Source of the DNA: a virus
Lineage: Duplodnaviria; Heunggongvirae; Uroviricota; Caudoviricetes
Length of the DNA: 6,354 bases
Direction: 5' to 3' (one strand)
IMG/VR virus record: IMGVR_UViG_2778261419_000005
The notes below the pieces were generated by a model that was not told the origin of the DNA, did not search any database, and saw nothing but the letters and a program-made list of their open reading frames with translations. The position numbers and the translations under genes were made by a program. Position 1 is the stretch's first letter. The number at the start of each line of letters is the position of its first letter. Shown in pieces: positions 1 to 4,715 of this stretch.

Positions 1-423
1 TCACTGCGCCACGTCCTGAAAATTACCCTGATAGAAAGCCAGTATGCGCTGCATAACTTCGCTCTTCCGGCACTCGCGACAGATTATGTTTAGGCGACTG
101 TCGTAGCGACGTATTTCTCCGTCAGGTGATGACCAGATAAGGTCCGGATCAACCACAGCAGGTTTCTTCACCTTTGCCCTCGAGAGTTTTTTGCGGGCGT
201 TTTGCCAGTCCTTACGCGCCTGTTCAGAGGGGAATAACCCGTAGCCGGAGTTGTATACATCGCCACTGGCTACCAGCTCTCTGGCAAGAACGCTCATCAG
301 ATATCTAGTCGCACCTGTTTTAGCTTCCAGTTGCCGTAACGTCTCACGGCCGCTCTGGCGCACGAGTTCCACCACCTGCCATTTAATTTTTTCCCGCTCT
401 TCTTGTGTAAAAACTTTTGCCAC
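1..423 (-). CDS. Hypothetical protein (140 aa), possible helix-turn-helix DNA-binding protein
   Basis: Complete minus-strand ORF: GTG start at 423-421 preceded by a G-rich Shine-Dalgarno (AAGGGGGA, reverse complement of 425-432, 4-nt spacer), TGA stop at 3-1. Segment ETLRQLEAKTGATRYLMSVLAREL looks HTH-like; C-terminal CxxC (CRECR). No family recognised with confidence. Confidence 0.55.
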   Translation of the reverse strand: MAKVFTQEEREKIKWQVVELVRQSGRETLRQLEAKTGATRYLMSVLARELVASGDVYNSGYGLFPSEQARKDWQNARKKLSRAKVKKPAVVDPDLIWSSPDGEIRRYDSRLNIICRECRKSEVMQRILAFYQGNFQDVAQ

Positions 424-463
424 AAGTCCCCCTTAAAATTACCTCATGACCTGAAATCAACAC

Positions 464-1096
464 TTATCCTCTGAAACCAGGCGGAATTTCTGTATCCGGT
501 TCAGAAATATGATTAACACAACGCTGTACAGGTGAACGTCCCAGGCGGATGACCAGTTCGTCCCATTTTTCGCGGAGCTTTGACGGGCTCATGATGTTTT
601 TTACCCAGAATGGATCTCGCTGAACCCGACCAAACATTTCGCAAATTTGTCTGTGGCTTCTGCCATCCAGCATCCGCATTGTGCGCACGTCATTGGCCCA
701 GGCAGTCCAGTTAGGCTCTTTTGGTCGCATGATCTCGCCATCATCACTGGCTGCCTGTTCGTAGAGACCCACGATCCGCCCCCAGATCCACTGCGCACAC
801 GCCAAATCCTCCCTGCTACCCCACTGGCGTTTTTTCGCACTAAACACAACCGCGTCGGAGTTCCGGGTTAAAGAATCCTGTTCAGTCGTCTGCGGGTCCG
901 GTTGCGAAGCTTCCGGACGAAAAGTGTTTTTATTCTCTGTAGTAATCTCTGTTGTATTCTCTGTAAGATCATCAGGCCATTTTGACCCGATGACATTGGG
1001 TCGTTTTGAACCAATGGAGCGTTTCATTTTGACCTCTTCCATCGTGTCATTTTGACCTGATGGAGCGGCGCATTTTGAACCGATGGATTCGCTCAA
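464..1096 (-). CDS. Replication protein with DnaT-like (primosomal protein I-like) C-terminal domain; possibly the C-terminal part of a split lambda-O-like initiator
   Basis: Minus-strand ORF with TAA stop at 466-464. C-terminus ...VNHISEPDTEIPPGFRG matches my recollection of the E. coli DnaT C-terminus (...VNTVSEPDSQIPPGFRG), and the preceding ~80 aa align plausibly with the DnaT C-domain. N-terminal ~60 aa are low-complexity and encoded by the repeat arrays. Start uncertain: ORF-track start is TTG at 1096; in-frame ATG at 1042; in-frame ATG at 1027 has a strong SD (GGAAGAGG, 5-nt spacer). Confidence 0.6.
   Translation of the reverse strand: MSESIGSKCAAPSGQNDTMEEVKMKRSIGSKRPNVIGSKWPDDLTENTTEITTENKNTFRPEASQPDPQTTEQDSLTRNSDAVVFSAKKRQWGSREDLACAQWIWGRIVGLYEQAASDDGEIMRPKEPNWTAWANDVRTMRMLDGRSHRQICEMFGRVQRDPFWVKNIMSPSKLREKWDELVIRLGRSPVQRCVNHISEPDTEIPPGFRG
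930..964. repeat. AT-rich block with three 12-bp-period direct repeats (TATTCTCTGTA / TAATCTCTGTT / TATTCTCTGTA) flanking the iterons
   Basis: Read directly at 930-940, 942-952 and 954-964; encodes the low-complexity peptide TENTTEITTENKNT on the minus strand. Position relative to the iterons matches an origin-type AT-rich unwinding region. Confidence 0.45.
978..1093. repeat. Five iteron-like direct repeats, consensus CATTTTGA(A/C)C(C/T)GATGGAGCG, period 23-24 bp; candidate replication origin
   Basis: Copies begin at 978, 1002, 1025, 1048 and 1071 on the plus strand (CATTTTGACCCGATGA; CGTTTTGAACCAATGGAGCG; CATTTTGACCTCTTCC; CATTTTGACCTGATGGAGCGGCG; CATTTTGAACCGATGGATTCGC). They lie inside the 5' coding region of the DnaT-like ORF, immediately downstream of the initiator N-domain ORF. 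Confidence 0.55.
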
Positions 1097-1107
1097 TTTG
1101 CCACCAT

Positions 1108-1407
1108 CTAAAAGTAGAAATTGGTCATATCGCGCTTTGATTTATTGAGCTTTTCACAACGCAAAAGCCCCAGCGTTTTCAGACTTGCAAACGCGCGCTT
1201 TAACGTTGACTCTGACCAGAATGGGAACTGTTCCAGCCATTGTTCCGTTGTGTTATAAATCCAGCGAACACCATCACATTCCATGCCGGAGTTGGTATCT
1301 CTCAACCAGTAGTGCAGTTGTTGCAAAACAATGGCTTCGTTTAAGCCAATTTTCATTGCCAGCTGCGTGTTTATAACCAGTGGGCGTTCAGCAAAAAGAA
1401 GGCTCAT
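1108..1407 (-). CDS. Replication initiator N-terminal winged-helix DNA-binding domain protein (O-like / replisome-organiser-like)
   Basis: Minus-strand ORF with TAG stop at 1110-1108. Preferred start is ATG at 1407-1405 with SD-like GGATGGA 3 nt upstream; the ORF track extends to a TTG at 1461. Product MSLLFAERPLVINTQLAMKIGLNEAIVLQQLHYWL...WSESTLKRAFASLKTLGLL has the wHTH signature common to phage/plasmid initiator N-domains. Different reading frame from the downstream DnaT-like ORF. Confidence 0.55.
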   Translation of the reverse strand: MSLLFAERPLVINTQLAMKIGLNEAIVLQQLHYWLRDTNSGMECDGVRWIYNTTEQWLEQFPFWSESTLKRAFASLKTLGLLRCEKLNKSKRDMTNFYF

Positions 1408-1651
1408 AATTCCATCCAGCTTTTTGTTGGTATTGCTGTCGATACGCAAGCTTGAAAGCAATTGCTTTTTCTATAAGTTCGTCAGTTTCACGATCCACTA
1501 CGGCAGGATCAGCAAAAAGCAGTCCGGACTCCACCACATCGCCATATTCTTTGTTTAACCCGGCGATCATGCACGTGATGCTTTTTCCGTCAGTAATTTC
1601 ACGATACAACCTGAAATCACTAATCCGGATAGCCTCCATAATCGCAGGCAC
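1388..1651 (-). CDS. Hypothetical protein (83-87 aa); possibly a 5'-truncated gene remnant
   Basis: Protein-like composition, but only GTG (1651) or a weak-context ATG (1639) as start. The frame is open upstream to 1705 without any ATG, as expected for a 3' fragment of a longer gene. Overlaps the next gene by ~20 nt. TGA stop at 1390-1388. Confidence 0.3.
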   Translation of the reverse strand: MPAIMEAIRISDFRLYREITDGKSITCMIAGLNKEYGDVVESGLLFADPAVVDRETDELIEKAIAFKLAYRQQYQQKAGWNYEPSFC

Positions 1652-1773
1652 TAGCGCCGTGAACTTTTCACGCTTATCCCTGGTGTCGATATCCGGCGTT
1701 AATTGTTAACTGGTTAACGTCACCTGGAGGCACCAGGCACTGCATCACAAAATTCATTGTTGAGGACGCGATA
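1652..1773. promoter_or_regulatory. Divergent intergenic control region with candidate operator palindrome GTTAAC-TG-GTTAAC (1705-1718) and adjacent CCTGG...CCAGG dyad (1723-1737)
   Basis: Only sizeable non-coding gap between the two oppositely transcribed gene sets; dyad symmetry read directly. No confident -35/-10 assignment. SD GAGGA at 1762-1766 serves the first plus-strand gene. Confidence 0.3.
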
Positions 1774-2243: not shown

Positions 2244-4715
2244 ATGAGTAAAGTCTTTATTTGCGCCGCTATTCCTGACGAACTGGCAACAAGGGAAGAA
2301 GGCGCTGTGGCTGTAGCCACAGCCATTGAAGCTGGCGACGAACGCCGTGCTCGAGCAAAATTTCACTGGCAGTTCCTGGAACATTATCCGGCTGCTCAGG
2401 ACTGCGCTTATAAATTTATTGTCTGCGAGGATAAACCTGGCATACCCCGCCCTGCCCTCGATTCATGGGATGCTGAATATATGCAGGAAAACCGCTGGGA
2501 TGAGGAGTCTGCTTCTTTTGTCCCGGTTGAGACTGAATCCGATCCGATGAACGTCACTTTTGACAAGCTGGCCCCTGAAGTACAGAACGCTGTCATGGTT
2601 AAGTTCGACACATGTGAAAACATCACCGTTGATATGGTTATTAGCGCACAGGAATTGTTGCAGGAAGACATGGCAACATTCGACGGACATATCGTTGAAG
2701 CGTTGATGAAAATGCCAGAAGTTAACGCCATGTATCCGGAGCTTAAGTTGCACGCCATTGGGTGGGTTAAGCATAAATGTATTCCTGGTGCTAAATGGCC
2801 CGAAATTCAGGCAGAGATGCGCATCTGGAAAAAACGTCGCGAAGGTGAACGCAAGGAAACCGGAAAATACACGTCTGTTGTTGATCTCGCCCGCGCCAGA
2901 ACCAATCAACAGTACACTGAAAATTCAACAGGAAAAATCAGCCCGGTCATTGCTGCCATTCATCGCGAATACAAGCAGACATGGAAAACACTGGATGACG
3001 AACTGGCCTACGCTCTCTGGCCTGGTGATGTGGATGCCGGAAACATTGACGGCAGCATCCATCGCTGGGCAAAAAAAGAAGTTATCGACAACGACCGCGA
3101 AGACTGGAAGCGTATCTCGGCATCAATGCGCAAACAGCCTGATGCCCTTCGCTACGACCGCCAGACTATTTTTGGCCTTGTCCGTGAGCGTCCGATCGAC
3201 ATTCACAAAGATCCCATAGCACTGAACAAATATATCTGCGAATACCTGACGACAAAGGGCGTGTTTGAGAATGAAGAAACAGACCTGGGCACTGTTGATG
3301 TTCTCCAGTCATCAGAAACACAAACTGATGCAGTGGAAACTGAGGTATCTGATATCCCAAAAAATGAAACCGCGCCGGAAGCTGAACCATCTGTAGAGCG
3401 TGAGGGGCCGTTCTATTTCCTCTTCGCAGATAAGGACGGAGAAAAATACGGTCGCGCAAACAAACTTTCTGGTCTGGATAAGGCACTGGCTGCTGGCGCC
3501 ACTGAAATCACAAAAGAAGAATATTTTGCCCGAAAAAATGGCACATACACGGGCTTACCGCAAAATGTAGATACCGCTGAAGATTCAGAACAACCAGAGC
3601 CGATAAAAGTTACCGCTGACGAAGTAAACAAAATTATGCAGGCAGCCAATATCAGCCAGCCTGACGCCGATAAGTTGCTTGCTGCATCACGTGGTGAATT
3701 TGTTGAAGGGATTAGTGACCCGAATGATCCGAAATGGGTTAAGGGGATCCAGACCCGCGATTCTGTGAACCAGAACCAGCATGAATCGGAACGGAACTAC
3801 CAAAAAGCGGAACAAAACAGCACAAATGCGTTACAAAACGAGCCAGAAACGAAACAGCCTGAACCAGTGGCGCAACTGGAAGTGGAAAAAGTCTGCACCG
3901 CCTGCGGTCAGACCGGCGGCGGCAACTGCCCTGATTGTGGCGCGGTGATGGGCGACGCAACATACCAGGAAACATTCGATGAAGAGTATCAGGTTGAAGT
4001 TCAGGAAGATGATCTGGAGGAAATGGAAGGCGCTGAACATCCACACAAGGAGAACACTGGCGGCAATCAGCATCACAATAGCGATAATGAAACTGGCGAG
4101 ACGGCAGATCACTCAATTAAGGTGAACGGTCATCACGAAATCACATCCACCAGCAGGACGTGTGACCATCTAATGATCGACCTTGAAACCATGGGAAAAA
4201 ATCCTGATGCCCCGATCATCTCAATAGGTGCAATATTTTTCGATCCGCAAACCGGAGATATGGGACCGGAATTTAGTAAGACTATCGATCTGGAAACTGC
4301 TGGCGGAGTCATTGATCGGGACACCATTAAATGGTGGCTTAAGCAATCACGCGAAGCGCAATCTGCCATTATGACCGATGAAATCCCGTTAGATGATGCA
4401 CTGTTACAATTGCGGGAATTTATCGACGAAAACTCCGGTGAATTTTTTGTTCAGGTTTGGGGAAATGGAGCCAACTTCGACAACACGATTTTGCGCCGTT
4501 CATACGAACGGCAGGGGATCCCCTGCCCGTGGCGTTACTACAACGATCGCGATGTACGCACAATCGTTGAGCTGGGGAAAGCCATAGACTTCGATGCCAG
4601 AACGGCTATTCCATTCGAAGGTGAGCGCCATAATGCACTTGATGACGCCCGTTACCAGGCAAAATACGTTTCAGTTATCTGGCAAAAACTGATCCCGAGT
4701 CAGGCTGATTCTTAA
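2244..4715 (+). CDS. Large modular protein (823 aa) with C4 zinc ribbon and C-terminal DEDDh (DnaQ-like) 3'-5' exonuclease domain
   Basis: ATG at 2244 with SD GAGG ~10 nt upstream; TAA stop at 4713-4715. Exo motifs read directly: Exo I MIDLET (D646/E648, nt 4179-4187), Exo II GNGANFD (D746, nt 4479-4481), Exo III HNALDDARYQAKY (H796/D801, nt 4629-4646). CxxC-x7-CxxC zinc ribbon at aa 551-565 (nt 3894-3938). N-terminal ~340 aa have no motif I recognise; aa ~341-630 are acidic/polar low-complexity linkers. Confidence 0.88.
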   Translation: MSKVFICAAIPDELATREEGAVAVATAIEAGDERRARAKFHWQFLEHYPAAQDCAYKFIVCEDKPGIPRPALDSWDAEYMQENRWDEESASFVPVETESDPMNVTFDKLAPEVQNAVMVKFDTCENITVDMVISAQELLQEDMATFDGHIVEALMKMPEVNAMYPELKLHAIGWVKHKCIPGAKWPEIQAEMRIWKKRREGERKETGKYTSVVDLARARTNQQYTENSTGKISPVIAAIHREYKQTWKTLDDELAYALWPGDVDAGNIDGSIHRWAKKEVIDNDREDWKRISASMRKQPDALRYDRQTIFGLVRERPIDIHKDPIALNKYICEYLTTKGVFENEETDLGTVDVLQSSETQTDAVETEVSDIPKNETAPEAEPSVEREGPFYFLFADKDGEKYGRANKLSGLDKALAAGATEITKEEYFARKNGTYTGLPQNVDTAEDSEQPEPIKVTADEVNKIMQAANISQPDADKLLAASRGEFVEGISDPNDPKWVKGIQTRDSVNQNQHESERNYQKAEQNSTNALQNEPETKQPEPVAQLEVEKVCTACGQTGGGNCPDCGAVMGDATYQETFDEEYQVEVQEDDLEEMEGAEHPHKENTGGNQHHNSDNETGETADHSIKVNGHHEITSTSRTCDHLMIDLETMGKNPDAPIISIGAIFFDPQTGDMGPEFSKTIDLETAGGVIDRDTIKWWLKQSREAQSAIMTDEIPLDDALLQLREFIDENSGEFFVQVWGNGANFDNTILRRSYERQGIPCPWRYYNDRDVRTIVELGKAIDFDARTAIPFEGERHNALDDARYQAKYVSVIWQKLIPSQADS

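Follow-up and report, generated by a model that had tools for sequence, protein, structure and literature searches.

Origins of replication that lie within the gene of their own initiator are textbook biology. The origin of RepA_N plasmids sits inside the rep gene, and in lactococcal phage TP901-1 (rep, ORF13) repeats that are required for replication are found inside the replication protein gene. In phage lambda and the Shiga toxin (Stx) phages the origin, ori-lambda, occupies the linker-coding middle of the initiator gene O (PMC7466680), and single-strand binding has been reported for lambda O itself (PMC7466680). RepA_N iterons take the form of direct repeats, semi-palindromic in sequence, which converge on a poly-A tract (PMC7145576), and the initiators RK2 TrfA and F RepE bind one strand of the repeated 13-mers in the unwinding element in a sequence-specific manner, with every repeat being required (PMC4081077). 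Here we consider a 6,354-nt stretch of Caudoviricetes DNA (IMG/VR record IMGVR_UViG_2778261419_000005; "the window" refers to this whole stretch), which is a degraded Qin-type (dicB-type) lambdoid prophage of Escherichia coli. In it, an array of 23-bp iterons and AT-rich 12-mers lies between the two halves of a broken O gene. Sequence comparisons lead us to believe, with a probability of roughly 0.85, that this array is where a lambdoid phage of the Qin/mEp460/PhiR42_1 type starts its replication, an origin placed within the phage's own initiator gene, in the stretch that encodes the linker.

The elements of the array are as follows, in the direction of the gene:

1086-1108, minus strand: iteron 1 (GATGGTGGCAAATTGAGCGAATC), in register and degenerate in the window, with a good copy in Klebsiella and Citrobacter relatives
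1063-1085, minus strand: iteron 2 (CATCGGTTCAAAATGCGCCGCTC)
1040-1062, minus strand: iteron 3 (CATCAGGTCAAAATGACACGATG), the best palindrome among the six
1017-1039, minus strand: iteron 4 (GAAGAGGTCAAAATGAAACGCTC), with an intact core and degenerate arms
994-1016, minus strand: iteron 5 (CATTGGTTCAAAACGACCCAATG), with both arms; a 1-nt spacer at 993 gives a 24-bp step
970-992, minus strand: iteron 6 (CATCGGGTCAAAATGGCCTGATG), adjoining the 12-mers, with both palindrome arms
931-966, minus strand: three tandem 12-mers (gene-sense TTACAGAGAATA CAACAGAGATTA CTACAGAGAATA), the proposed DNA-unwinding element

With at most one mismatch allowed, the iteron core GGTCAAAATG (gene-sense, minus strand) was found at 978, 1025, 1048 and 1071, together with one further, unrelated match at 4367. 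These five matches in the window compare with 0.67 expected, and none of 200 shuffles reached five. The copy at 1002 (CGTTTTGAAC) has two mismatches to the core. Tandem Repeats Finder (TRF) and a repeat search gave a period of 23 with a first step of 24, and six in-register units span 970-1108. An initial annotation of this sequence had listed five repeats. Their positions and their spacing of 24, 23, 23 and 23 bp were reproduced, but the number becomes six when the degenerate unit is counted, and of the 20-nt consensus proposed at that time only the first ~10-15 nt hold, the true unit being a 23-bp imperfect palindrome around an A-tract (CATCrGGTCAAAATGACCyGATG). Three units have both arms of the palindrome, and the remaining units have one. 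In intact relatives the initiator (e.g. WP_000054514) is a single protein of 321 aa (966-nt gene, named 'phage replication protein O' by the annotation pipeline PGAP), and in such an intact homologue the iterons encode residues ~107-153. One and the same DNA core is read there in three frames, as I-G-S-K, S-G-Q-N and E-V-K-M; the earlier argument from reading frames, that one DNA unit encodes different peptides, is therefore correct.

The AT-rich block had been described as three 12-bp repeats at 930-964; the three repeats are indeed present, and their span is 931-966. The string ACAGAGAWTA matches three times in 931-964 where 0.01 matches are expected, and the 12-mers fall on the GC minimum of the O gene (27.5%). 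Exactly at the junction of the last iteron and the first 12-mer lies a GATC (Dam) site (968-971, GATGATCTTACAGAG), which is kept in many enterobacterial relatives. In one E. coli relative (L013, IMGVR_UViG_2563366940_000001) the sequence departs in the middle of the second 12-mer and passes into what looks like the end of an IS3-family insertion sequence (IS) element (TGTGAACCGCCCCGGGAATCC...), so that an IS appears to have inserted into the putative unwinding element.

The array is flanked by the two parts of the initiator gene, which comprise the following features:

1108-1407 (within ORF 1108-1461), minus strand: N-domain remnant open reading frame (ORF), an initiator winged helix-turn-helix, with a premature TAG stop at 1108-1110
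1207-1209, minus strand: codon of the specificity residue S67, in the N-domain remnant ORF
1113-1116: point at which the window lacks 22 bp that the intact 966-nt O gene has; in gene sense it lies just upstream of the iterons, and the breakpoint is ambiguous by 2-3 nt
464-1096, minus strand: second ORF of the broken O gene, with the iteron-encoded linker and the C-domain, in a frame that differs from that of the N-domain ORF
548-862, minus strand: lambda-O-like C-domain core, within ORF 464-1096
467-517, minus strand: C-terminal tail of O (VNHISEPDTEIPPGFRG), near-identical to the final 17 residues of DnaT from E. coli (VNTVSEPDSQIPPGFRG)

The lambda-ori-like layout suggested by the initial annotation was borne out, with the array in the linker between a winged helix-turn-helix N-domain and a C-domain, and with iterons first and AT-rich repeats second in gene sense. 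Both origins have tandem iterons ~20-24 bp apart that form an inverted repeat around an A-tract (lambda TCCCTCAAAACGAGGGA, window GGTCAAAATGACC), an AT-rich, purine-skewed block follows directly downstream in gene sense, in the order of features annotated for lambda, and the C-domains of the two initiators are homologous: the C-terminal half of the window's O matches residues 135-270 of lambda O with 34% identity over 148 residues (BLASTP, E 5e-26). There are also clear points of difference. Lambda has four iterons of 18-19 bp whereas the window has six of 23 bp, the AT-rich block of the window consists of precise 12-mer repeats that are conserved across phyla, and the gene after O is P in lambda and a DUF977 gene in the window. 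In addition, lambda O does not have the DnaT-like tail carried by the window's O, and its N-terminal DNA-binding domain is of the Phage_rep_O/TIGR01610 type, which that of the window is not.

A scan of one genome per species yielded 80 loci with this initiator family, of which 76 were distinct, from Enterobacterales, Pseudomonas, Campylobacterales, Bacillales, Lactobacillales and Chloroflexi; the N-domain was found in phages and prophages of Enterobacterales, Pseudomonas, Xanthomonas, Staphylococcus and Bacillus. In all, 323 genome loci and 562 viral loci matched. Autocorrelation over the 180 nt that follow the N-domain reached 0.386 at lag 23 and 0.349 at lag 46, as compared with ~0.25 in the flanking coding sequence, and peaks were seen only there. 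Repeat spacings across the loci were 23 bp in 146 cases, 24 bp in 34 and 22 bp in 19, with 3-9 copies per locus, and the core of the iteron varies by lineage (GGTCAAAATGACC, GGGCAAATTGCCC, GTGCAAAATGCAC, GGACAATTTGTCC, GGATCAAAATGATCC). The comparison of homologues that had been proposed for this element thus came out in its favour: across phyla the period and position stay the same, but neither the encoded peptide nor the iteron sequence does. The palindromic core can be written xCA(N3-4)TGx', and the loci were then classed by the base at its variable position x. Residue 67 of the initiator (S in the window, at the predicted start of the recognition helix) predicts this base class without exception, T being paired with S or T and a few other residues (23 loci), G with D (23/23), A with K (4/4) and C with N (1/1). 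The mutual information between residue 67 and base class is 1.44 bits, which is the full class entropy, and the next-best alignment column reaches 0.80. In a neighbour-joining tree built without column 67 the class switched at least seven times independently, and residue 67 followed each switch. From this covariation we infer that the N-domain would read the iterons, and we regard the comparative evidence for a cognate initiator-binding origin as strong.

The 12-mer motif ACAGAGAnTAC (window form ACAGAGAwTAc) is kept family-wide and across phyla, usually in 2-4 copies placed 12 bp apart directly past the last iteron. CAGAGA occurs at a density of 6.9 per kb in the segment after the N-domain, as opposed to 0.20 per kb elsewhere (34-fold). 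For a codon test that avoids a circular definition of the region, we anchored each locus on its first CAGAGA copy only and counted the later copies. In these later copies, Glu was encoded by GAG 71 times and by GAA 2 times, and Thr by ACA 73 times and by other Thr codons never, whereas in the rest of the same ORFs GAA (457) exceeded GAG (380) and all four Thr codons were in use. The fixed synonymous positions hold in genomes of 36% to 58% GC. Most loci have the 12-mers in frame, so that they are translated as TExT peptides, and in 8 loci spacings of 11 shift the reading frame. Judged by codon choice and frame, the 12-mers are conserved as a DNA element. As the C-domains differ between loci, the only family-wide partner of the 12-mers would be the N-domain, or else universal host machinery.

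One of the observations that the initial annotation had named as speaking against its reading was homologues in which the protein is kept and the periodicity is absent, and this first seemed to be the case in ~16 Bacillaceae homologues, which have no in-gene periodicity. However, nearly all of these loci have similar 12-mers (CAATACCAGAGAnTAC or CAAAGAnTAC) upstream of the gene, at a distance of 190-290 bp, where they are not covered by any consistent ORF; in the Bacillaceae loci L133-L171 this cassette lies at locus coordinates ~1215-1315. The upstream cassette therefore makes the DNA-element reading stronger, and the cassette appears to sit either within or outside coding sequence. When read by eye, several of the upstream cassettes are followed by a terminator-like hairpin, and in a few loci (e.g. 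L139) iteron-like repeats precede the 12-mers.

Across the family the N-domain is paired with at least five types of C-domain (lambda-O-like, Phg_2220_C, DnaB_2, DnaT and one unknown type). In relatives that share N-domain and origin and have another C-domain, divergence starts just past the 12-mers, and owing to this recombination boundary the N-domain, the iterons and the 12-mers can be regarded as one module. In the Izhakiella locus L100, an N-domain/origin cassette like that of the window (67% identity across residues 1-185) precedes a C-domain that resembles neither lambda O nor the C-domain of the window, and the next gene belongs to the lambda P family (PF06992, 1.1e-56). Loaders of the P family thus do not depend on a C-domain of the lambda O type. 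The Trabulsiella locus L103, which also has a cassette of this kind, has a C-terminal tail in common with L100 and a downstream protein near-identical to that of L100. Three loci on contigs assigned to metagenome-assembled genomes of Gram-positive or anaerobic bacteria, titled Veillonella parvula, Bacillota and Collinsella (L093, L094 and L138) encode an N-domain protein identical to that of E. coli, which most likely reflects binning contamination and not host range; L093 carries four 12-mers, not three.

The N-domain itself (residues 1-105) could not be assigned to the lambda O or RepA_N family by sequence. Lambda O matches the N-terminal models PF04492 (Phage_rep_O) and TIGR01610 with E-values of 5.7e-36 and 5.4e-39, whereas the intact homologue of the window's O gave no match to PF04492 or TIGR01610 at E up to 1 or 0.1, and membership of its N-domain in the lambda O family was ruled out on this basis. 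The N-domain matched no Pfam or NCBIfam family, with Pfam RepA_N (PF06970) absent at E up to 1, and the intact homologue matched PHROG 391 ('replication initiation O-like') over residues 17-321 with an E-value of 5.6e-91. A search of PDB sequences with the N-domain profile returned only noise and did not recover the solved RepA chains, and for this reason a fold search was needed. The alignment for structure prediction was built from short homologous protein fragments and was used solely for modelling. The resulting AlphaFold model of the N-domain is a winged helix-turn-helix with a predicted local distance difference test (pLDDT) score of 83.7, in which the recognition helix comprises residues 66-79. 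Its closest solved folds are RepA_N initiators (the RepA proteins of pSK41 and pTZ2162, and Vibrio cholerae PLE RepA), and like these it has a winged-helix fold of the DnaD N-terminal domain (DnaD-NTD) type.

Apart from being the best fold matches, RepA_N initiators resemble the window's family in the anatomy of their iterons and in their domain design, in which the N-terminal domain binds DNA and is conserved and the C-terminal domain is host-specific and can be exchanged. They differ from it in that neither the Pfam RepA_N model nor the solved chains match the window's N-domain in sequence, and in that the window is a phage context. To our knowledge, a 12-mer block has not been described for RepA_N origins. 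For 12-mers that are conserved in sequence and adjoin iterons, the best precedent is offered by TrfA and RepE, which are winged-helix initiators acting on double-stranded iterons, although these proteins and their sequences are unrelated to those of the window. Homology to TP901-1 Rep and its in-gene origin was ruled out (hhalign probability 0.2, with different repeats), and TP901-1 has no ACAGAGA 12-mers. The comparisons support the view that the window's origin would function like ori-lambda and the RepA_N plasmid origins, yet it fails sequence membership in both of their N-domain families.

The initiator gene of the window is no longer intact. The initial annotation was right about the two domains that flank the array but did not remark that they are two frames of one gene, split by the 22-bp deletion; because this deletion frameshifts the initiator, ORFs 1108-1461 and 464-1096 together form one pseudogene. 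For annotation, this means that the two ORFs should be read as one broken O gene. In the RefSeq record NZ_CM194533.1 they are annotated separately, as 'hypothetical protein' and 'phage replication protein O'. The deletion is also present in the window's source genome, and it is rare: when 80 IMG/VR loci were fetched, it was found in none of the 64 close relatives in which the sequence could be located. Among near-identical E. coli copies on viral contigs the iteron array is invariant, and the cis element is intact in the window, with 100% identity to its counterpart in the complete phage PhiR42_1. Compared with NZ_CM194533.1, the window shows 100% identity apart from a clean 2,103-bp deletion at 1691/1692, with 2 bp of microhomology at the junction, that takes out the ydaT start, dicC, the dicA-like repressor, ydfA/B/C and dicF. 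As a consequence, what is left of YdaT in ORF 1388-1651 is its C-terminal part alone, and the promoter region of the O operon is gone. With the O gene frameshifted and its promoter/immunity region deleted, this copy of the origin is a stranded relic, and it could fire only with O supplied in trans from a related prophage. A stranded origin of this kind could still answer O from a co-resident prophage.

The intact module can be viewed in PhiR42_1 (48.7 kb), a complete Qin-like lambdoid phage in which O is the sole recognisable replication protein. Exact iteron cores and 12-mers in this genome cluster in the O gene only, and the lambda-type terminase genes lie ~15 kb from the array. The annotation of the complete genome lists no P, DnaC or helicase gene, and the gene after O encodes DUF977/'LygF', as in the window. 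The PhiR42_1 record names a host. The same replication module is carried by mEp460_ev081, a derivative of mEp460, and for the mEp460 focus phage lytic and lysogenic cycles in E. coli have been reported (PMC9836094).

How a phage of this type might load a helicase is suggested by the C-terminal tail of O. A tail of the form (I/V)PxGFRG recurs on unrelated C-domains of family members, and we compared the downstream genes of 20 sampled loci, 8 with a DnaT-like tail and 12 without. All eight tail-bearing loci were followed by small proteins (PerC/winged helix-turn-helix, DUF1627, DUF977-like or without a Pfam hit), and none of them by a recognisable loader. By comparison, a loader of the lambda P-like or DnaC/IstB-like type came next in 7 of the 12 tail-less loci, with Pfam confirming three (L100, L107 and L109) and reading of the sequence giving the other four, and the remaining five loci were followed by unidentified proteins. 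The DnaT-like tail may be considered a candidate host-mimicking motif that recruits the helicase-loading machinery. According to a review, how DnaT recruits DnaB-DnaC is unknown (PMC5778457), and the function of the phage tail bears on this open question.

In the mechanism that we propose, dimers of the N-terminal winged-helix domain would bind the six semi-palindromic 23-bp iterons, as the covariation suggests, and the start of the recognition helix (S67) would read the variable base beside the central A-tract. The nucleoprotein complex would then strain and melt the adjoining 36-bp ACAGAGAnTAC block, the AT-richest spot of the gene, by analogy with lambda O, TrfA and RepE, and the 12-mers would probably also be recognised sequence-specifically by the N-domain, for instance as single strands. 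Finally, the C-terminal half, with its lambda-O-like domain and DnaT-like tail, might bring in host DnaB-DnaC, a speculative step which is proposed since neither P nor DnaC is encoded by the phage. A broader reading that joins all of these strands is offered tentatively, as we think it somewhat improbable that its three parts hold together. In it, an ancient portable cassette, made up of the N-domain together with 23-bp iterons and ACAGAGAnTAC 12-mers, would be shared by phages of Proteobacteria, Firmicutes, Campylobacterota and Chloroflexi. Iteron specificity would come largely from one recognition-helix residue (S/T, D, K and N pairing with T, G, A and C), with the invariant 12-mers as a second, sequence-specific site that is read by the conserved part of the same domain during melting, probably as single-stranded DNA, and loader-less variants, that of the window included, would recruit host DnaB-DnaC via a copied DnaT tail. 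What merits following up is the specificity code, as well as the conservation of the 12-mers across phyla and the tail that resembles DnaT.

Several points weigh against the view that the array is an origin. The covariation of residue 67 with the iteron base proves recognition and not initiation, and an autoregulatory or copy-control array would give an equal signal. The repeats could thus bind the initiator for autoregulation or for copy-number or incompatibility control (as an operator, or by handcuffing) with replication starting elsewhere, and plasmid iteron arrays often do also act in control. Against this, a pure operator has no role for an AT-rich 12-mer block that is always adjacent and is conserved at the DNA level, the complete PhiR42_1 genome holds no second cluster of sites, and the layout matches systems in which the in-gene array is the origin, namely lambda and RepA_N plasmids; we therefore consider a pure control array unlikely. 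The other points concern the details of the origin itself. We infer the role of the 12-mers as unwinding element and second recognition site by analogy, and a DnaA box search found no DnaA box near the array. As neither the model for the N-domain of lambda O nor the RepA_N model matches the protein, the structural analogy rests on an AlphaFold2 model of moderate confidence. The origin copy in the window is very probably inactive, given the frameshifted O and the lost promoter region. No paper on this origin family was found in the literature searched, the coverage of which was incomplete; an N-domain that has no Pfam family and, within that coverage, no published account of its origin is at the same time part of what makes the system of interest.

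Selection on the protein would be a different way to obtain periodicity, with the repeats forming a repetitive peptide linker, or arising by slippage as low-complexity coding sequence without a function as DNA. The region does encode a flexible, poorly conserved linker, and the TExT peptides of the in-frame 12-mers would fit such an account. It does not explain, however, why the 23-bp unit is read in three frames, why the synonymous positions of the 12-mers are fixed over so wide a range of GC contents and their frame is shifted in eight loci, why a similar block lies outside any consistent ORF in the Bacillaceae loci, or why the iteron sequence co-varies with a residue in another domain. The frame and codon analyses effectively refute this explanation, to which we give next to no weight. 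No more credible is another type of cis site (for packaging, recombination or a transcription factor) or a chance cluster. Nothing specific was found in favour of these, and they are opposed by the shuffle and expectation statistics for both repeat types, by the distance of the terminase genes in PhiR42_1, and by the linkage across phyla to the initiator N-domain and not to packaging or recombination genes.

The window contains, in addition to the O gene, the following genes:

1-423, minus strand: DUF977 gene
1388-1651, minus strand: YdaT-family gene fragment
plus strand of the window: dicB, ydfD, an 823-aa exonuclease, excisionase and integrase

In the 823-aa protein, annotated as 'exonuclease VIII' (2244-4715), the last ~180 residues match the Rv2179c-like 3'-5' exonuclease family, and the first ~640 residues gave no Pfam match. 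An Rfam search of the window found nothing. Among 5,426 complete E. coli genomes, 1,707 contained at least 80% of the replication-gene segment (window 400-1750, 1.35 kb) and 4,459 matched it in some part, so that the initiator family with its in-gene origin is very common in E. coli.

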